Assembly: GCA_964588635.1 (NCBI GenBank)
Contig: CAZPQP010000003.1
Coordinates: forward strand, 1 to 32,220
From: an uncultured Bifidobacterium sp.
GTDB taxonomy: Bacteria > Actinomycetota > Thermoleophilia > Gaiellales > F1-60-MAGs149
Reading direction: 5' to 3'
Length of the DNA stretch: 32,220 nt
The notes below the pieces were generated by a model. That model was not told where the DNA came from and did not search any database. It worked only from the letters and a program-made list of their open reading frames with translations. This document shows positions 4,804 to 14,606 of this stretch, in pieces (the stretch's first letter is position 1; every line of letters begins with the position of its first letter). A program made the position numbers and the translations under genes.

Positions 4804-5109
4804 TCACGCGTAGCGATCGCCGCGCATCACCTCGACGGTGGTGGTCCAGGCGATCGTCGCGTAGTGCGGGAAGTACGCCTCGGCGAGACGCTGCATGATC
4901 GCCTCCGCCACGTCAGCGGAGCAGAGCACCTCGATGCGGACGTTGCCGCCCTCCAGATCGCCGACGCGGCGATCACGCGGACCGGCACCGCGGGCCACCG
5001 ACAGCGTCCAGCCCGTGGCGCCGGCGGTGCGGAGATCGCGCAGCAGGCGATCCTCCAGGATCGCCTCCGACACGATCGTCACCAGGTGGACGCTGCTGCG
5101 TGCGCTCAT
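4804..5109 (-). CDS. sbtB: PII-like signalling protein, SbtB-like (101 aa)
   Basis: MSARSSVHLVTIVSEAILEDRLLRDLRTAGATGWTLSVARGAGPR...NVRIEVLCSADVAEAIMQRLAEAYFPHYATIAW parallels cyanobacterial SbtB ([28 protein letters not shown]...IKFEILTE..AEEIADRVAVKYF, recalled from memory). An ATGA overlap (5106..5109) links it to the upstream SbtA-like gene. The longer 262-aa ORF-track version is an artefactual extension. Confidence 0.75.
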   Translation of the reverse strand: MSARSSVHLVTIVSEAILEDRLLRDLRTAGATGWTLSVARGAGPRDRRVGDLEGGNVRIEVLCSADVAEAIMQRLAEAYFPHYATIAWTTTVEVMRGDRYA

Positions 5110-6095
5110 CCGATCACCACCTCCGCGATCGCCAGATACAGGGGGATGCCGATCACGAGATTGAACGGGAACGTCATACCCAGACTCGCGGTCAGGTAGA
5201 GGCCGGGATTGGCCTCGGGCAGGGCAAGGCGCACCGCGGCCGGCGCGGCGATATACGACGCGCTCGCCGAGAGCACGCCGAGCACCGTCGCCGTGCCGAC
5301 GGAGAGCCCCAAGGCGCCGCCGAAGCCCACGCCGAGCGCGCCCATCGCGATGGGGAACGCGATCGCGAAGATCGGCAGCCCCGGCCCGGCGGTGCGCAGG
5401 TCCCCGATGCGGCGCCCGGCCAGCGTGCCGAGCTCGATCAGGAACAGGGTGAGAACCCCGACGAACAGCGCACCGAAGAAGGGCTCGATACGGGTATAGC
5501 CGGCGGGTCCCGTCAGCGCACCGAGGACGAGTCCGCCGAGCAGCAGGAGCACGGACTTGCCGGCGAGGATCTCGCGCAGCGAAGCTCCCCACGAGACCGT
5601 GCGTCCAGCGCCACGGCCGGCGAGGAGCAGTCCGACGACGATGCCGGGCACCTCCATCACGGCCAGCAGCGTCGTGACGTAGCCGTCGAAGGCGACCGCA
5701 GAGGCCTCGAGGAAGACAAGCGCCGCGGTGAAGGTCACCAGCGACGTCGAGCCGTAATGCGCGGCAATCGCGCCGCGGTCGAGCGGGCCCAGCTGCGTGA
5801 GCAATCGCAGCGCGAGAAAGGCGAGAAGGGGGATCAGCAGCCCCAGCACCACTGCCGCGACGACGGGGACGACCACCTCGTGCAGGCCTGCTTCGCGGAG
5901 GGCCACGCCGCCCTTGATGCCGATCGCCAGCAGGAGGTACATCGAGAGGAACTGGTAGACGGCATCGGGCAGGCGCAGATCGCCGCCCACGGCGACGGCG
6001 AGCAGGCCGAGCGCGAATCCGAGCACGGGCGGCGACATGAGATTGTCGAGCGCGAGACTCAGCGTGTCCGTGGTCACGGCCTCAGTATGGCGCAC
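5106..6095 (-). CDS. sbtA: SbtA-family (Sbt_1) putative sodium-dependent bicarbonate transporter, short-loop form
   Basis: It is a polytopic membrane protein. LMSPPVLGFALGLLAVAVGG..., AHYGSTSLVTFTAAL and SASASYIAAPAAVRLALPEANPGLY parallel Synechocystis SbtA segments (GGLFGAVSGSTMAAAL, ASSSDISGPPTLRAGIPSANPSAY, recalled from memory). It is paired with a PII-like gene. The start is uncertain: GTG 6095 or internal starts. Confidence 0.78.
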   Translation of the reverse strand: MRHTEAVTTDTLSLALDNLMSPPVLGFALGLLAVAVGGDLRLPDAVYQFLSMYLLLAIGIKGGVALREAGLHEVVVPVVAAVVLGLLIPLLAFLALRLLTQLGPLDRGAIAAHYGSTSLVTFTAALVFLEASAVAFDGYVTTLLAVMEVPGIVVGLLLAGRGAGRTVSWGASLREILAGKSVLLLLGGLVLGALTGPAGYTRIEPFFGALFVGVLTLFLIELGTLAGRRIGDLRTAGPGLPIFAIAFPIAMGALGVGFGGALGLSVGTATVLGVLSASASYIAAPAAVRLALPEANPGLYLTASLGMTFPFNLVIGIPLYLAIAEVVIG

Positions 6096-8334: not shown

Positions 8335-9263
8335 CGGCGGACTCCGCGGGCCCGCTCGGTCAGGTAGGCGTAGATGCTCTCCAGATCCTCATCCGTCGGC
8401 TCGACGGCGCGCAGTTCGGCGGCCACGTCGCGCGCCAGCCCCGGCAGCGCAAGAGCCAGCTCGTCGGGGCGATTCGTCGCCACGAGCAGCGACGTCGCCT
8501 CGACCTCGACGCGCTGCACGCCCTCGAGCTCGGCGATCGCGGCGGCCAGCGGGCGCGGGCGATCCGTCTCCACGCGGATGCGGCGCGGGCGCTCCTCCAT
8601 CAGCGCCCGCAGCGCCGGCGGCGAGCCCTCGGCGACCAGCCGGCCGTTCACGAGCACGAGCACGCGGTCGGCCACGCGCTCCACCTCGCCCAGCACGTGG
8701 CTGGAGAACACGGTGGCGACGCCCTCGGCGCCGAGTCGATGGAGCAGCGCGATGACGCTCTCCCGCTGCTGGGGGTCGAGCCCGTTGAGCGGCTCGTCGA
8801 GGATCAGCACGCGCGGGCGGTGGACGAGCGCCTGGGCGATCTTGACGCGCTGGCGCATGCCCTGGGAGAAGCCCTTGACGTCGCGCTCGGCGACGTCGGT
8901 CAGATCGACCGTCGCGAGGGCCGCTGCCGCCGCAGCACGCGGCTGAGGTACGCCGCGCAGGCGGGCGCAGGCTTCGACGAAGCCCCGGGCGGTCAGCCCC
9001 GACCAGACGCCATCGCCATCGGGCACCAGCCCGAGCAGCGCGCGGGCCTCGCCGCTGCGGCGAGGGTCCCGCCCGTCGATGCGGACCGTGCCCTCGTCGG
9101 GGCGCGCAAGCCCTGCGGCAAGGCGGATGGCGGTCGACTTCCCCGCGCCGTTGTGGCCCAGCAATCCGGTCACGCCGGGCTCGATCGCGAACGAGACGTC
9201 GCCGACGGCCACGGTGTCGCGGTACCACTTGGAGACGCGGTCGAACTCGAGCAGCGGCGTCAT
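8331..9263 (-). CDS. ABC transporter ATP-binding protein (second pair)
   Basis: The start MTPLLEFDRVSKWY is at ATG 9263. Walker A is GHNGAGKST, the signature is FSQGMRQR and Walker B is VLILDEPLNGLD. The C-terminal domain is DUF4162-like. The 578-aa ORF-track form is an upstream artefact. Confidence 0.9.
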   Translation of the reverse strand: MTPLLEFDRVSKWYRDTVAVGDVSFAIEPGVTGLLGHNGAGKSTAIRLAAGLARPDEGTVRIDGRDPRRSGEARALLGLVPDGDGVWSGLTARGFVEACARLRGVPQPRAAAAAALATVDLTDVAERDVKGFSQGMRQRVKIAQALVHRPRVLILDEPLNGLDPQQRESVIALLHRLGAEGVATVFSSHVLGEVERVADRVLVLVNGRLVAEGSPPALRALMEERPRRIRVETDRPRPLAAAIAELEGVQRVEVEATSLLVATNRPDELALALPGLARDVAAELRAVEPTDEDLESIYAYLTERARGVRR

Positions 9264-10156
9264 GCGCCACGCCGCCGGTAGCGCAGGGCCAGCACCAGGA
9301 CACACACGGCAACGACGATCGCGTTGGCGACCAGCAGCGGTGCGAGCTCTGGGCGATTCGCGGCGACGAACGGTCCGTCGCCGCCGGTGATCTGCTCGCC
9401 GCCGATCATGATCTGCGCGAGCCACACGGGCAGTGCCTGCAGGTTGAGGATGCGGGCGTTGTTGCCGAGATCGGCGACCTCCGCCAGCACGCCGGACACC
9501 ATGCCGGAGATCACGATGAGCAGGATGAACCCGACGCTCGCGAAGGCGCGACGGCTCGTCAGGGACGCCACCGCCAGCCCCATCAGCGTGTAGACGAAGG
9601 CGATCAGGAGACCGCCGCCGATGATCGCCGGCACCTCCCGCAGGTGGCTCTCGATGTAGCCGAGCGGGTGCGTGGCGAAGAACACGTTGCCGACGTACAG
9701 GATCAGCAGCGGCAGCATGGTCACGGCCAGCAGCGGCACGAGCGAGGCGACGATCTTGCCGAGCACGTACTCGCGGGGACTCATCGCCGTGGACAGGTAG
9801 AGGTCGAGCACGCGGCTGCGGCGGTCCGGGCAGATCGTCTCGGGGATGACGATGGCGGCGTACGCCCAGATCGCGAACCCGATGAACGTGTAGTAGAAGG
9901 CGTACGGCACCACATCCGTCGGCAGCTGCTCCGCGATCTCGCCGCCGAGCAGGGCCTTCAGGCCGAGGACCGTGACGGCCGGGCCGAGGGCGATCAGGAT
10001 CAGGCCGACAGGGACGACCTTGGCCGTCCACGGACGGCGTGCCCCCAGCGAGCGCAGGGCGCTCCACTTGGCCATCGAGGCGACGGCGCGTCGGGTGGAT
10101 CCGCGCACCTCACCCTCGTACGGCCGGTAGCGCACGTCGTGGATGCGCGCGCTCAC
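9260..10156 (-). CDS. ABC-2 type transporter permease (first pair)
   Basis: It is a 298-aa multi-span membrane protein. ATGA-type overlaps occur at both ends, with ATPase genes at 10153..10156 and 9260..9263. Confidence 0.7.
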   Translation of the reverse strand: MSARIHDVRYRPYEGEVRGSTRRAVASMAKWSALRSLGARRPWTAKVVPVGLILIALGPAVTVLGLKALLGGEIAEQLPTDVVPYAFYYTFIGFAIWAYAAIVIPETICPDRRSRVLDLYLSTAMSPREYVLGKIVASLVPLLAVTMLPLLILYVGNVFFATHPLGYIESHLREVPAIIGGGLLIAFVYTLMGLAVASLTSRRAFASVGFILLIVISGMVSGVLAEVADLGNNARILNLQALPVWLAQIMIGGEQITGGDGPFVAANRPELAPLLVANAIVVAVCVLVLALRYRRRGA

Positions 10157-11073
10157 CCGATCGCCTCCAGCAGCTCGTCCTCGATCGAGGGGCCTGCGGG
10201 ATGCAGGCGCCGCAGGCCGCTGCCGGTCTCCGCGGCGGCATCGCGCACGATGGCGCGATCCTCGTCACGGGCGATGCGGGCGCGGAGTCGCTGCTCGCCC
10301 GCGGGTTCGGTCGCGACGCCGCGATCCTGCAGCGCGGTCAGCAGTGCTCCGGGATCGCCGACGGTCTCGATCAGGAGCTCGTCATCCTCGCCTGCGTTCG
10401 CGGCCAGCGGGCGATCGAGCGTGACGCGGCCCTGTCGCAGGACGACGACGTGGTCGCAGGTGCGGCGGATGTCGTCGAGGATGTGCGACGAGATCAGCAC
10501 GCGGACGCCGAGATCCTGCGAGACGCGGCGGATCACCTCGAGCATCTCCGAGCGCTGGGCGGGATCGAGGCCGTTCGTCGGCTCATCGAGGATGATCAGC
10601 TCGGGGGCGTGGACGAGCGCCTGGGCGATCTTCACGCGCTGCCGCATGCCAAGCGAGAAGGAGCCGATCACGCGGGAGCGCTCCTCCTCGAGACCGACGG
10701 CGAACAGCACCTCGGAGGCGCGGCGGATGGCGTCGGCCCGCGACAGCCCGCGGAGCTCCGCCAGATGGCGCACCAGATCGGCTGCGGTCAACTCGGGCGG
10801 CAGGCACTCGTGCTCCGGCGCGTAGCCGATGCGGCGCCGGATGCGATCGCCGTGCGTGCGCGCGTTCTCGCCGAGCACGTCGATCTCACCGCCGTCGAGG
10901 CGCACGAGGCCGAGGATGGCCTTCATCAGCGTGGACTTGCCGGCGCCGTTGCGTCCGAGGAGTCCCGTCGCCGGCGCGTCGATGCGCACGGTCACGTCGT
11001 CGAGGGCGACGACGCTGCCGTAGCTGCGCCGCGCACCCCGCACCTCGATCGCCGGAGTCACCGCCACGTGCAC
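10153..11073 (-). CDS. ABC transporter ATP-binding protein (first pair)
   Basis: Walker A is GRNGAGKST, the signature is FSLGMRQR and Walker B is LIILDEPTNGLD. The C-terminal domain is DUF4162-like. The start is one of three closely spaced GTGs (11073, 11067, 11061). Confidence 0.9.
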   Translation of the reverse strand: MHVAVTPAIEVRGARRSYGSVVALDDVTVRIDAPATGLLGRNGAGKSTLMKAILGLVRLDGGEIDVLGENARTHGDRIRRRIGYAPEHECLPPELTAADLVRHLAELRGLSRADAIRRASEVLFAVGLEEERSRVIGSFSLGMRQRVKIAQALVHAPELIILDEPTNGLDPAQRSEMLEVIRRVSQDLGVRVLISSHILDDIRRTCDHVVVLRQGRVTLDRPLAANAGEDDELLIETVGDPGALLTALQDRGVATEPAGEQRLRARIARDEDRAIVRDAAAETGSGLRRLHPAGPSIEDELLEAIG

Positions 11074-11088
11074 AGCCTACGCGTTCGC

Positions 11089-11128
11089 GCCGGTGGGTTG
11101 CGGACACGCTGGTCCGCAACCCACCGGC
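11089..11128 (-). terminator. Perfect 17-bp-stem hairpin between the rhodopsin stop and the ABC ATPase start (terminator or attenuator-like, no U-tract)
   Basis: GCCGGTGGGTTGCGGAC-ACGCTG-GTCCGCAACCCACCGGC. It starts 15 nt after the rhodopsin stop codon and ends 16 nt before the ABC start codon. Confidence 0.55.
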
Positions 11129-11142
11129 GACGACGCGGAGAG

Positions 11143-11853
11143 CTAGGCCGTCGCCTTGTGCGAGCTCTTGACGCCGGTCACCAGGACGATGCCGAACGCG
11201 ACCTTGGCGAGCACGTCGATCACGGCGAAGACCAGGATCTCGCCGGTCAGGCTCAGCGCACCCGTGCCCTCGGTGCCGAGCACCCAGAGGATCGGGTAGA
11301 TGAACCACAGCACCGTGAGGATGCCGAGCAGCTTCGTGAAGAGCGGCTTCGACGCGGCATCCAGGTGGGCCTTGACGGGGCTGAACAGCGCCCACAGGAC
11401 GAGCAGGAAGAACACGCAGCTGATCGCGTACCAGATCCACTTGTCGCTGTGGTCACCGCGCAGCGATGCGATCAGACCGGTGGCGATCATCAGCACGTCG
11501 GCACCGAGCACCCAGCCGATCAGGCCGTTGCGGGCGCGGGCGGCGTCGCCGCCACCCGTGAGCGGTGCAAGGCCGACCGTCAGGAGGCCGAGCAGCAGCA
11601 GCGGCGTCGTGACGACCCAGTCGACGTAGCGGGCGTAGAAGATCTGCTGGCCCGCGACCTCGACGACGCCGGTGCCGGTCGCCATCGCGAGGTAGGCACA
11701 CGCGGCGATCGCGCAGACGAAGAAGCTCGCCGTCACGTGGTGCCGTTCATTGTTGGGAAGGCTGAAGCCGATCGCGGCGATGATCACTGCGCCGATTGCC
11801 ATTCCCGCCGTCCCGAGCCAGAGGATGAGCTCCTGCGTGGACGTCAGTTCCAT
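11143..11853 (-). CDS. Microbial (type 1) rhodopsin, bacteriorhodopsin-like, DTG motif
   Basis: It is 236 aa with seven hydrophobic segments. Helix C reads ARYVDWVVTTPLLLLGL (BR: ARYADWLFTTPLLLLDL). Helix F reads VLWFIYPILWVLGTEG (BR: VLWSAYPVVWLIGSEG). Helix G reads VFAVIDVLAKVAFGIVLV (BR: LFMVLDVSAKVGFGLILL), with the Schiff-base Lys at residue 217 (codon 11205..11203). An AAGGAA SD lies about 10 nt before the ATG. Confidence 0.9.
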   Translation of the reverse strand: MELTSTQELILWLGTAGMAIGAVIIAAIGFSLPNNERHHVTASFFVCAIAACAYLAMATGTGVVEVAGQQIFYARYVDWVVTTPLLLLGLLTVGLAPLTGGGDAARARNGLIGWVLGADVLMIATGLIASLRGDHSDKWIWYAISCVFFLLVLWALFSPVKAHLDAASKPLFTKLLGILTVLWFIYPILWVLGTEGTGALSLTGEILVFAVIDVLAKVAFGIVLVTGVKSSHKATA

Positions 11854-11964
11854 GGGTCACCTGTTCCTTGTCGCGCTTGTGCGCCGGAGGTATACCGGGC
11901 ATGAGAATCTTCGCAGGCGGTGGGGGGCGCGACAGGACAGGATTCCGTCATCCCCGTTTTCGTG

Positions 11965-11990
11965 CCAATCTGGATCCGGATCCACATTGG
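11965..11990. promoter_or_regulatory. 26-bp near-perfect palindrome (candidate dimeric-regulator operator), copy 1
   Basis: CCAATcTGGATCC|GGATCCAcATTGG. The 14-bp core TGGATCCGGATCCA is perfectly self-complementary and each arm has one mismatch position. It lies in the divergent rhodopsin/leuS intergenic region. Confidence 0.4.
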
Positions 11991-12001
11991 TCTGTTTCGT
12001 G

Positions 12002-12027
12002 CCAATCTGGATCCGGATCCAAATTGG
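12002..12027. promoter_or_regulatory. 26-bp near-perfect palindrome (candidate operator), copy 2
   Basis: CCAATcTGGATCC|GGATCCAaATTGG lies 37 bp (about 3.5 helical turns) from copy 1. Confidence 0.4.
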
Positions 12028-12092
12028 TCGATTTCGTGCACGTTTTCTGCGCAAACCCCGGTGGACCGCGGCGGCGCGACGGACGGACTCCG

Positions 12093-12098
12093 TATCCT
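12093..12098 (+). promoter_or_regulatory. Candidate -10 element (TATCCT), consistent with a leaderless leuS mRNA
   Basis: The TANNNT-type hexamer is followed by exactly 6 nt and then GTG 12105. There is no SD upstream of that GTG. This is pattern matching only. Confidence 0.25.
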
Positions 12099-12104
12099 GC
12101 CGAC

Positions 12105-14606
12105 GTGGAGCGATACGACCCCCAGGCCGTCGAGGCGCGTTGGCAGCGGGTGTGGGCCGACGAGAAGGCGTTCGAGACGCCCAATCCGGCCGATCCGGCG
12201 TCCGATGACGCGCCGCGCGCGTACGTGCTGGAGATGCTGCCGTACCCGTCCGGCGATCTGCACATGGGCCACGTCACCAACTACACGATGGGCGACGTCG
12301 TCTCGCATTTCCGCCGCCGCACCGGGCACAGGGTGCTCCATCCGATGGGCTACGACTCGTTCGGCCTGCCCGCCGAGAACGCGGCGATCAAGACCGGCGG
12401 CAAGCCCGCTGAGGTGACGGCCCGCAACATCGCGCGCATCCGCGAGCAGATGCTGCGCATGGGCTGGTCGATCGACTGGAGTCGCGAGCTCTCGACCTCG
12501 GATCCCGCGTACTACAGGTGGACGCAGTGGATCTTCCTGCGCATGTTCGAGCGCGGGCTCGCCTACAAGCGCGGCGCTGCCGTCAAGTGGTGCCCGCAGG
12601 ATCAGACGGTGCTTGCCAACGAGCAGGTCGTCGACGGTCACTGCGAGCGCTGCGGCACCGAGGTCGAGGCGCGTGATCTCGAGCAGTGGTTCTTCCGCAT
12701 CACCGACTACGCCGATCGGCTGCTCGACGACATGGAGAAGCTCGAGCAGTGGCCCGAGCGCGTGCTCACCATGCAGCGCAACTGGATCGGGCGCTCGCAT
12801 GGTGCCGAGGTGCAGTTCACCGTGGTCGGCGGCGACGAGGCGATCCCGGTCTTCACGACGCGCCCCGACACGCTGTTCGGCGCCACGTTCTTCGTGCTCG
12901 CGCCCGAGCACCCGATGATCGGCGACCTCGTTCGCGGCACCGACGCCGAGGCCGAGGTGCTGGACTACATCCGCCGTCGCGGTGCCGAGTCGGTGGCCGA
13001 CCGCATGCGCGACGATCGCCCCAAGACGGGTGTCGACACGGGCCGCCGCGTCCTCAACCCCGTGACGGGCGAGGAGATCCCGATCTGGGTCTCGGACTAC
13101 GTGCTCGTGGAGTACGGCACCGGCGCGATCATGGCCGTGCCCGCGCACGACGAGCGCGACCACGCGTTCGCGCTCGCCTTCGGGCTGCCGATCCGCCAAG
13201 TCGTGGCGGCCGCCGACGGCGCCGACGTGGACGTGCAGGCGCAGGCCTTCACCGGCGCCGGCGACGACGCGGTGCTCGTGAACTCGGGGCAGTTCGACGG
13301 CATGACGGTCGCCGAGGCCAAGAACGCCGTGCCGGCCTGGCTGGCCGAGGACGGCCGCGGTGAGCAGAAGACCGCCTACCGCCTGCGCGACTGGCTCGTC
13401 TCGCGCCAGCGCTACTGGGGCGCGCCGATCCCGATCATCGACTGCCCGTCGTGCGGCCTCGTGCCCGTGCCCGACGCCGATCTACCCGTGCGCCTGCCGG
13501 ACATCGAGGATTACGCGCCCAAGGGCCGCTCGCCGCTGGCCGCCGCGGAGGAGTGGCGCGCCGTGCCGTGCCCGTCCTGCGGGGCCGCCGCGCAGCGCGA
13601 GACTGACACCATGGACACGTTCGTCGATTCCTCGTGGTACTACCTGCGCTACGTCAACGCCCATGACGACCTTGAGGCCTTTGCCAAGGGAGACGTCGAT
13701 TGGTGGCTCCCCGTCGGGCAGTACATCGGCGGCGTCGAGCACGCGATCCTGCACCTGCTGTACAGCCGGTTCTTCACGAAGGTGCTGTTCGACGCGGGCT
13801 ACCTCGGCTTCGAGGAGCCGTTCGCCAACCTCTTCACGCAGGGGATGATCTACAAGGACGGCGCGAAGATGTCCAAGTCCAAGGGCAACGTCGTCGCCCC
13901 GGACGAGATCGTCAACCGCTACGGCGCCGACGCCCTGCGCATGTACGTGCTGTTCATGGGCCCGCCCGAGCAGGACAAGGAGTGGTCCGACAGCGGCGTG
14001 CTCGGTCCCTCGCGCTTCCTCGACCGGCTGTGGAAGGCCGTCGACCGCATCGCGGCGGAGACGTCGGGCGGGCCGCTGCCCGCACCGCCGGCCGGTGCCG
14101 ACGGCGGTGCGCTCGAGCTGCTGCGCCTCACCCACCACTCGATCCAGCGCGTGACCGAGGACATCGACCGCCGCCTGCAGTTCAACACCGCGATCGCCGC
14201 CGCGATGGAGCTGCTCAACGGCATCGAGAAGCAGCGGGATGCGCTGCTCGGCGATCCGATCGGCGGTCAGGCGCTGCGTCACGCCGCCGGCACGCTGGTG
14301 TGCCTCGTGCAGCCGTTCGCCCCGCACATCGCGGAGGAGCTGTGGGAGACCCTCGGTGGCTCCCGTCTGTGGGAGACGCCGTGGCCCGCCGCGGATCCGG
14401 CGCTGCTCGTGGCCGATACGTTCGAGTGCGTGGTACAGATCAACGGCAAGCTGCGCGAGCGCGTGCAGCTCGGCTGCGGACTGCCGAAGGACGAGGTGCT
14501 GGCGGCGGTGAAGACGCTGCCGAAGATCAGCGAGCAGCTCGAGGGTCGGGAAGTGGTCAAGGAGATCGTGGTTCCCGACAAGCTCGTCAACATCGTCGTC
14601 AGGTAG
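12105..14606 (+). CDS. leuS: Leucine--tRNA ligase
   Basis: VERYDPQAVEARWQRVWADEKAFE is a typical LeuS N-terminus. The HIGH motif is HMGH (PYPSGDLHMGHV) and KMSKS is intact (KMSKSKGN). A CP1 editing region is present. The ORF-track start at 11868 runs through the non-coding repeats and was rejected. Confidence 0.92.
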   Translation: MERYDPQAVEARWQRVWADEKAFETPNPADPASDDAPRAYVLEMLPYPSGDLHMGHVTNYTMGDVVSHFRRRTGHRVLHPMGYDSFGLPAENAAIKTGGKPAEVTARNIARIREQMLRMGWSIDWSRELSTSDPAYYRWTQWIFLRMFERGLAYKRGAAVKWCPQDQTVLANEQVVDGHCERCGTEVEARDLEQWFFRITDYADRLLDDMEKLEQWPERVLTMQRNWIGRSHGAEVQFTVVGGDEAIPVFTTRPDTLFGATFFVLAPEHPMIGDLVRGTDAEAEVLDYIRRRGAESVADRMRDDRPKTGVDTGRRVLNPVTGEEIPIWVSDYVLVEYGTGAIMAVPAHDERDHAFALAFGLPIRQVVAAADGADVDVQAQAFTGAGDDAVLVNSGQFDGMTVAEAKNAVPAWLAEDGRGEQKTAYRLRDWLVSRQRYWGAPIPIIDCPSCGLVPVPDADLPVRLPDIEDYAPKGRSPLAAAEEWRAVPCPSCGAAAQRETDTMDTFVDSSWYYLRYVNAHDDLEAFAKGDVDWWLPVGQYIGGVEHAILHLLYSRFFTKVLFDAGYLGFEEPFANLFTQGMIYKDGAKMSKSKGNVVAPDEIVNRYGADALRMYVLFMGPPEQDKEWSDSGVLGPSRFLDRLWKAVDRIAAETSGGPLPAPPAGADGGALELLRLTHHSIQRVTEDIDRRLQFNTAIAAAMELLNGIEKQRDALLGDPIGGQALRHAAGTLVCLVQPFAPHIAEELWETLGGSRLWETPWPAADPALLVADTFECVVQINGKLRERVQLGCGLPKDEVLAAVKTLPKISEQLEGREVVKEIVVPDKLVNIVVR

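Follow-up and report, generated by a model that had tools for sequence, protein, structure and literature searches.

A family of rhodopsins with glycine at the bacteriorhodopsin Asp96 position in freshwater Actinobacteria: a probable outward proton pump that lacks a carboxylate donor

The window analyzed in this work (the whole stretch of 32,220 nucleotides, from contig CAZPQP010000003.1 of assembly GCA_964588635.1) carries on its reverse strand an open reading frame (ORF), with an ATG start and a TAG stop, whose 236-residue product was confirmed to be a type-1 rhodopsin with glycine at the position of Asp96 of bacteriorhodopsin (BR). The protein matched the Pfam family PF01036 (Bac_rhodopsin) over residues 6-228 (E value of 7e-54, 183 bits against a cut-off of 24.6), and a search of NCBIfam gave no match. 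An AlphaFold2 model computed from 54 family sequences had a predicted local distance difference test score (pLDDT) of 92 and a predicted template-modelling (TM) score of 0.88, and it consisted of seven helices with a beta-hairpin between helices B and C. Lys217, which aligned with BR Lys216, was placed in the last helix (202-235). The solved folds closest to the model were RxR, SsGHR, CyR, CsR, and BR, with TM-scores of 0.83-0.92, all of which pump protons or anions. The gene and the codons on which the argument turns are as follows.

11143..11853, (-) strand: rhodopsin coding sequence, 236 amino acids plus stop (ORF list, PF01036, AlphaFold2 model)
11737..11742, (-) strand: codons of His38-His39 at the cytoplasmic end of helix B, corresponding to BR Lys41/Phe42, SpaR His32/His33, and PspR Gly32/His33 (alignment, 116/116 of the family)
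11725..11727, (-) strand: codon of Ser43 at the BR Thr46 position, which is His37 in PspR and SpaR (alignment, 97% of the family)
11620..11622, (-) strand: GAC codon of Asp78, equivalent to BR Asp85, the Schiff-base proton acceptor and counterion (codon check, BR alignment, 116/116 of the family)
11587..11589, (-) strand: GGC codon of Gly89 at the BR Asp96 position, without a carboxylate donor (codon check, 116/116 of the family)
11239..11271, (-) strand: stretch Glu195-Glu205, whose end residues are the counterparts of the proton-release glutamates BR Glu194/Glu204 (both Glu invariant in the family)
11203..11205, (-) strand: AAG codon of Lys217, the retinal Schiff-base lysine, equivalent to BR Lys216 (codon check, alignment)

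Residue equivalences were taken from MAFFT alignments with Halobacterium BR, the reference for which was verified by the appearance of the expected residue at each known BR position; the reference for ASR was identical to PDB 1XIO. In these alignments, Arg75, Asp78, Thr82, Gly89, and Asp119 correspond to BR Arg82, Asp85, Thr89, Asp96, and Asp115, respectively, the aromatic and proline residues Trp183, Tyr186, Pro187, and Trp190 to Trp182, Tyr185, Pro186, and Trp189, Tyr142 to Trp138, and Glu195, Glu205, Asp213, and Lys217 to Glu194, Glu204, Asp212, and Lys216. The residues of the retinal pocket were kept (Trp79, Trp183, Tyr186, Pro187, Trp190, Asp119, and Met122). An earlier note on this DNA, made from the sequence alone, had listed BR-equivalent residues in a 236-residue rhodopsin, and the alignment bore out each of them, as the codon check did the positions given for Asp78 (11622..11620) and Gly89 (11589..11587). 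Its description of a complete pump scaffold that lacks a donor carboxylate also holds for this BR-type protein, with Gly89 invariant and the acceptor and release residues kept. To that description we add the invariant His38-His39 pair, Ser43 at the BR Thr46 position, and a strong hairpin after the stop codon.

Conservation was counted in the 116 homologues of at least 225 amino acids among the 120 best homologues. The DTG motif (Asp78, Thr82, and Gly89 in the window protein) was found in all 120, at identities of 50-95%, and Arg75, Asp78, Thr82, Gly89, His38-His39, Glu195, and Glu205 were invariant in 116/116. Phe220, at the BR Phe219 position where PspR has Tyr213, was also invariant in the family, Asp213 and Lys217 were each absent from a single homologue, and the retinal-pocket residues were invariant or almost invariant. 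Since the motif is present throughout the best homologues and Gly89 is kept even in those with identity as low as 50%, the glycine is not an accident of one sequence.

Rhodopsins with DTG or DTS motifs (glycine or serine at the BR Asp96 position) and no carboxylate donor are a recognized kind of proton pump for which two crystal structures exist (PDB 7W74 and 8ANQ). PspR and PaR (DTG) and SpaR (DTS) have been described as pumping protons outward, with a pH-dependent reprotonation from the cytoplasmic solvent (PMC8927995; PMC10154332). SacR has also been reported as an outward H+ pump of the DTG/DTS type with pH-dependent reprotonation. In the crystal of PspR, water next to Gly84 of the motif is held by His33, His37, and Tyr213, in hydrophilic cavities reaching the cytoplasm, and tyrosine occupies the BR Phe219 position in 95% of DTG/DTS proteins (PMC8927995). 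The His at the BR Thr46 position of SpaR and PspR has been proposed to act as a donor or a gate. A second DTG/DTS clade, that of MpR from Methylobacterium populi, has been described by others as a Li+/Na+ pump (PMC10154332). Relatives with the TTG motif pump anions, and the glycine at the BR Asp96 position of one of them, SsGHR, was reported to open a cytoplasmic cavity (PMC11532467).

When the window protein is compared with these systems, its one distinctive feature is a mosaic of residues, in which a BR-type release pair is combined with a His-His pair and in which His37 and Tyr213 of PspR have no counterpart. The Schiff-base region and the retinal pocket are as in BR, and the extracellular side, with Thr194-Glu195, Glu205, and Trp190, resembles BR, RxR, and CyR. 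At the BR Glu204 position, the glutamate of the window protein (Glu205) is replaced by Thr in PspR and by Ser in SpaR (position 199) and in Pantoea. On the cytoplasmic side, Gly89 is accompanied by His38-His39, a pair fully matched by His32-His33 of SpaR and in its second residue by His33 of PspR. In contrast, Ser43 stands where PspR, SpaR, and the MpR-like proteins have His37, and Phe220 is the residue found in BR. His at BR position 42 was found together with Gly or Ser at position 96 in 38 of 50 representatives and together with Asp96 in 9 of 52, counts that are not phylogenetically independent.

The window protein thus shares with PspR, PaR, and SpaR, the "mirror proteorhodopsins" (PDB 7W74, 8ANQ), the Asp-Thr-Gly/Ser motif, the lack of a carboxylate donor, a BR-like Schiff-base region, His at BR position 42, and Glu at BR position 194. 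It differs from them in Ser43, Phe220, Glu205, and Trp190 (Phe in those proteins at the BR Trp189 position), its identity to them is 35-42%, and their hosts are Gram-negative Proteobacteria in which blh is usually adjacent. SsGHR, a glycylhalorhodopsin with a TTG motif (PDB 8XX8), also has Gly at the BR Asp96 position and is close to the model in fold (TM 0.92/0.86), but it pumps anions inward, has Thr in place of BR Asp85, and carries Gln at both position 42 and position 46 of BR, whereas the window protein keeps Asp78 and Glu205 and has His39 at position 42. The BR-type pumps with a DTD motif (BR, archaerhodopsins, RxR, and cyanorhodopsins) resemble it in fold (TM 0.83-0.90), retinal pocket, the Arg82/Asp85/Asp212 complex, the release pair of Thr/Ser193-Glu194 and Glu204, and Phe219; they differ in having Asp96, for which the window protein has Gly, and Lys41/Phe42, for which it has His-His, and the identity is 36-40%. 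ASR and the xenorhodopsins have Pro at the BR Asp212 position and have lost the release pair, unlike the window protein with its Asp213, Glu195, and Glu205.

The position of the family among these groups was examined by several comparisons. In a sequence search of solved structures, SsGHR (8XX8) was the best match with 140 bits, followed by SyHR, a cyanorhodopsin, RxR, and cruxrhodopsin-3; BR scored 108 bits, and PspR was outside the top 60 matches. A hidden Markov model (HMM) of the family gave 209 bits for SsGHR, 204 for the Pantoea DTG protein, 199-202 for the Methylobacterium DTG proteins, 200 for RxR, and 192 for CyR, with lower scores for ASR (181), SpaR (176), PspR (168), and BR (162). 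A neighbor-joining (NJ) tree with 200 bootstraps was computed for 141 sequences, comprising the 50%-identity representatives nearest to the query and named references from PDB alignments and plasmid records. The window family formed one clade in this tree (bootstrap of 0.905, and 175 of 200 replicates in a second run), which was located, with node support of 0.07 or less, beside the DTG, DTS, and TTG groups. Its sister group contained an uncharacterized DTS representative (P0127) in 55% of the replicates, PspR and SsGHR in 28% each, the MpR-like proteins in 26%, ASR in 18%, CyR in 8%, and BR or RxR in 5%. Membership of any of the characterized groups was rejected, because the PspR/SpaR/Pantoea clade (bootstrap of 0.95-0.97), the Methylobacterium MpR-like clade (0.96-1.0), SsGHR with its relative (1.0), and ASR with the xenorhodopsins (1.0) all left the window family out, and membership of the BR/RxR clade was excluded likewise by bootstrap-supported clades without it. 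The family is therefore a separate branch, and it leans to the DTG/DTS/TTG radiation over the BR-type DTD pumps, at a depth beyond the resolution of the NJ tree.

These comparisons change part of the picture drawn by the earlier note, which had placed the protein closer to BR than to the DTG proteins of Pseudomonas and Pantoea and had called the latter proteorhodopsin-like. The identities to all BR-side references were 31-42%, the family HMM ranked the TTG pump and the Pantoea and Methylobacterium DTG proteins above BR, PspR entered the sister group far more often than BR did, and the window protein has the His typical of DTG/DTS proteins at BR position 42 (His33 in PspR). The DTG group of PspR itself was set beside the trimeric rhodopsins BR, HR, and ASR, not the proteorhodopsins (PMC8927995). 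The novelty implied by that note was also overstated. From metagenome-assembled genomes (MAGs) of freshwater Mycobacteriales and Solirubrobacterales, He et al. (bioRxiv 10.1101/2022.08.01.502354) had obtained 130 DTG opsins, a cluster that they named "MycoR"; the MAGs came mostly from four clear-water lakes with a surface pH near 8, the opsins were grouped with DTS rhodopsins of Saccharibacteria, and the study included no functional work. Our family has the same motif and comes from actinobacterial MAGs of stratified freshwater lakes, many of them from the same lake MAG series, and the homologues from Mycobacteriales and Solirubrobacterales (50-58% identity) fall into one clade with the window protein (bootstrap of 0.905), a match made by taxon and motif rather than by the MycoR sequences. 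In contrast, the sub-clade of the window protein (236 amino acids, Thermoleophilia/Gaiellales, with the leuS/ABC gene order) is not named in the text of He et al. Thus, the protein lies, strictly taken, outside the characterized clades of the same motif and function, while its clade and motif were already on record. This actinobacterial freshwater clade had been catalogued in metagenome surveys, and the window gene is an ordinary, well-conserved member of it.

The host is a freshwater actinobacterium of the Thermoleophilia, similar to Gaiellales. A scan of species-representative genomes gave 45 related loci (L006-L050), all but one of them on MAG contigs. The nearest (L006), on a 2.3-kb contig of an "uncultured actinobacterium" MAG from Lake Loclat, encodes a near-identical protein, listed as 100% identical and differing by about one residue. 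The next loci, with 90-94% identity, are from Thermoleophilia or Actinomycetota MAGs of other lakes, those with 69-83% identity are labelled Gaiellales or Thermoleophilia, and those with 49-58% identity belong to Solirubrobacterales, Solirubrobacteraceae, Mycobacterium, and Mycobacteriaceae. Furthermore, the leucyl-tRNA synthetase (LeuRS) encoded in the window was 95-96% identical to that of Thermoleophilia MAGs. Two GC-rich MAG contigs with an actinobacterial opsin (L017 and L046) are titled "Bifidobacterium breve", which looks like a taxonomic mislabel in both cases, and the first of them also has the leuS gene order of the Thermoleophilia type.

The order of the divergent leuS, the rhodopsin gene, and the first ABC transporter genes was kept in 14 related MAG loci, where the contig was long enough; genes further downstream, namely the rest of the ABC-2 cluster, a DyP peroxidase, and SbtA, were shared by the closest relatives only. 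The ratio of nonsynonymous to synonymous divergence (dN/dS) of the rhodopsin gene was 0.008 relative to L006 (where dN was slightly above zero), 0.06 relative to L007 and L009, and 0.13-0.24 relative to more distant orthologues, with synonymous divergence (dS) of 0.25-0.55, and this combination indicates strong purifying selection. The GC content at third codon positions was 0.93 in the rhodopsin ORF and 0.83-0.95 in the neighboring genes. Because of this composition, the conserved gene order, and the low dN/dS (0.008-0.24), we regard the rhodopsin as resident in the lineage, in agreement with the earlier suggestion that it is no obvious recent import.

The product of the window gene is probably a donor-less DTG rhodopsin that binds retinal and uses light to pump protons outward, an assignment that was among the possibilities raised in the earlier note and is the best reading of the fold, residues, conservation, selection, gene order, and clade described above. 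After photoisomerization, the Schiff base of Lys217 would hand its proton to Asp78 within a BR-like complex of Arg75, Asp78, Thr82, and Asp213, and the proton would leave on the outside through the BR-type release pair of Glu195 and Glu205. The Schiff base would then be reprotonated straight from the cytoplasm, with no internal carboxylate involved, possibly by way of a water-filled cavity that Gly89 opens and whose lining includes Ser43 together with the invariant His38-His39. If reprotonation is direct in this manner, the turnover rate should depend on the cytoplasmic pH. Next to the opsin gene, neither the window nor those related loci that were examined contained a transducer or signaling gene.

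Several points weigh against this assignment. Ser43 is present where SpaR and PspR have His37, and Phe220 where 95% of the DTG/DTS proteins have Tyr, so that the uptake path of PspR cannot simply be carried over. A donor-less rhodopsin whose photocycle is slow can serve as a sensor. In the deep part of the NJ tree, no node above the family had a support higher than 0.07. Pfam scans of the main ORFs, the Blh HMM, and six-frame searches for CrtY, CrtB, and CrtI found neither blh nor a crt gene in the 32-kb window, and there was none within 10 kb of the opsin gene in the 14 nearest relatives. Finally, a literature search for an experimental study of an actinobacterial DTG rhodopsin found none, and one DTG rhodopsin, MpR, has been reported by others to pump Li+/Na+ (PMC10154332).

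The first of the other explanations, which we consider improbable, is that the protein is a photosensor, in which the lack of a donor would give a slow photocycle and a long-lived intermediate signaling to a partner encoded elsewhere. It shares the missing carboxylate donor with SRI, SRII, and ASR, and actinobacterial rhodopsins with a DSE motif are considered possible sensors (PMC10865882). However, its neighbors in the window and in the syntenic relatives include no Htr-, MCP-, or ASRT-like gene, Pfam scans of the main ORFs revealed no transducer in the window, as the earlier note had stated, and the release glutamates, lost in ASR and the xenorhodopsins, are invariant here, with Asp213 kept in all but one homologue. 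Regulatory genes do occur beside some relatives, such as one resembling CarH/LitR in a Mycobacterium MAG and an extracytoplasmic function (ECF) sigma factor in nine Solirubrobacterales loci, but these are of types associated with light-induced expression and would fit control of the opsin gene rather than signaling by the opsin. Furthermore, the DTG/DTS proteins that have been characterized are pumps.

There is also a slim chance that the gene product is an apoprotein for which the host supplies no chromophore, either a relic or a protein that relies on scavenged retinal and contributes little by itself. The lack of blh and crt genes near the opsin, which the earlier note had recorded for the window, is in line with this explanation, as is the statement of He et al. 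(bioRxiv 10.1101/2022.08.01.502354) that, among freshwater Actinobacteria other than acI-A and acI-B, most have no gene for beta-carotene cleavage and would depend on retinal from outside. In contrast, dN/dS of 0.008-0.06 at dS of 0.25-0.5 relative to the nearest orthologues is not expected of a relic, reliance on scavenged retinal is compatible with a proton pump as well, and with 32 kb of the genome in view the absence of retinal genes from the host is not concluded. The window rhodopsin has to be supplied with retinal by genes in other parts of the genome or by the environment. When the window and the loci L006-L050 were searched in six-frame ORFs with an HMM of Blh (built from three proteobacterial and 74 actinobacterial or archaeal sequences) and with CrtY, CrtB, and CrtI queries, matches were obtained in only two loci, one of them a distant Swaminathania locus. 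The other, on a 1.59-Mb Solirubrobacteraceae contig (L033), has an opsin of the family followed by a convergent blh (PF15461, E value of 1e-50) and a lycopene cyclase gene at 10798-12772, which connects the family with the synthesis of retinal in at least one lineage. Among the search matches, the nearest relatives of this Blh after those of other Actinobacteria were haloarchaeal Brp/Blh proteins. Two further Blh homologues, from long contigs, belong to a crtY-blh-crtB-crtI cluster of another actinobacterial lineage, and they could not be connected with the window rhodopsin family.

A light-driven Li+/Na+ pump of the kind claimed for MpR is very improbable, for although the DTG motif is held in common and the Methylobacterium DTG proteins scored about as high with the family HMM as any reference (199-202 bits), the MpR signature of E32, E33, and D35 is missing from the window family (D35 is the invariant His39 here, and the E32 and E33 positions are not conserved), the MpR-like proteins differ on the extracellular side in having Asp at BR position 194 and Gly or Ala at position 204, and their well-supported clade leaves the window family out.

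Within the interpretation as an outward proton pump, the clade could even represent a third, mechanistically distinct type of donor-less pump, in which early release through Glu195/Glu205 is combined with a His38-His39 relay on helix B that does the work of Asp96 and of the His37 gate alike, a possibility that we hold to be doubtful. If so, its pH profile might differ from that of the acid-active "mirror" pumps, with useful pumping, for example, at the pH of about 8 of the clear-water lakes that are rich in these genes. Since DTG/DTS pumps are recognized and actinobacterial DTG opsins are catalogued, the window gene adds no new category. The value of the clade is that of a well-defined test case, large and strongly conserved, in which release features of BR are joined to His-His/Gly on the uptake side and the His37 gate is lacking. 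Its pH dependence bears on whether the "acid-only" behavior of the mirror proteorhodopsins is general to pumps with Gly or Ser at the donor position, and on how much light energy can be harvested by the abundant freshwater Thermoleophilia and Mycobacteriales.

The remaining genes of the window are of a housekeeping character and encode RNase E/G, Obg, NadD, SbtA with a P-II protein, DyP, ABC-2 transporters, LeuRS, ComEC, HolA, FolD, GatA, a class A penicillin-binding protein, and tyrosyl-tRNA synthetase. Two features flank the rhodopsin gene.

11088..11129, (-) strand: perfect 18-bp stem-loop, GC-rich and terminator-like, without a U tract, between the opsin stop and the ABC ATPase gene (RNA fold)
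11854..12104, no strand assigned: divergent intergenic region of 251 bp from the opsin start to the leuS start (GTG 12105), presumed to contain the rhodopsin promoter (sequence)

The hairpin lies 14 nt past the opsin stop, and the fold of 11070-11150 on the (-) strand had an energy of -60.3 kcal/mol and a z-score of -7.6, with none of 200 shuffles being as stable. It was not called by a scan for consensus terminators, because it lacks a T run. The opsin gene is most likely transcribed as a single gene, since it has the divergent region upstream and the strong hairpin downstream, and since insertions occur at the downstream position in four relatives. A functional coupling of the opsin to the downstream ABC-2 transporter genes was therefore rejected, given the hairpin between them and the two unrelated genes inserted in those relatives. 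The ABC ATPase gene is about 2.4 kb further from the opsin in L010 (10847-13300), L014, L016, and L018, and the gap in L010, the one of the four that was inspected, contains an enolase-like ORF and an ORF on the opposite strand that is kinase-like by eye.

Upstream of the opsin, a scan for sigma-70 consensus promoters found none. By eye, two short motifs separated by about 30 nt, GATGACGG and TGCGAA, are seen upstream of the opsin in most of the related MAGs (11854-11957 in the window, and L007-L013), and they could be candidate promoter or regulator sites. The same intergenic region contains two tandem 37-nt units at 11958-12031, each with a near-perfect 26-bp palindrome, CCAATCTGGATCCGGATCCA(C/A)ATTGG, of which no copies are expected by chance. 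These units were found only in the same-species contig L006 and were missing from relatives with a 94% identical rhodopsin, so the element looks like a variable insertion, and its role as a conserved operator was rejected. A search of Rfam around the rhodopsin gene gave only sub-threshold chance matches to models of plant and animal miRNA hairpins, all of them on the palindromes or the hairpin.

Other gene arrangements were observed next to the opsin of some relatives. A gene for an ECF sigma factor lies directly downstream of the opsin, in convergent orientation, in nine Solirubrobacterales loci (L059 at 8843-9427, L020, L021, L027, L031, L039, L040, L044, and L060), an RskA-type anti-sigma gene is located nearby in L059 and L060, and this arrangement may be connected with light- or stress-dependent regulation. 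On a 94-kb Mycobacterium MAG contig (L058), the CarH/LitR-like regulator (HTH_17 and two B12-binding domains, 8914-9693) is convergent to the family opsin, with DabB, DabA, a P-II protein, and carbonic anhydrase encoded just upstream, an arrangement present in this one locus. In the window, an SbtA-type bicarbonate transporter (PF05982) and its P-II-like partner are encoded at 4804-6095 on the (-) strand, about 5 kb from the opsin, and they are syntenic in L007 and L009. A link of light-driven proton-motive force to uptake of inorganic carbon, considered from SbtA and P-II in the window and DabBA and P-II in the Mycobacterium MAG, was set aside as speculative and confined to those lineages. 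On the other side of the rhodopsin gene, the longest leuS ORF, 11868-14606 on the (+) strand, opens at a TTG at 11868 and spans the intergenic palindromes, and alignment of orthologues suggests that the true start is most likely the GTG at 12105 (VERYDPQAVEARWQ...).

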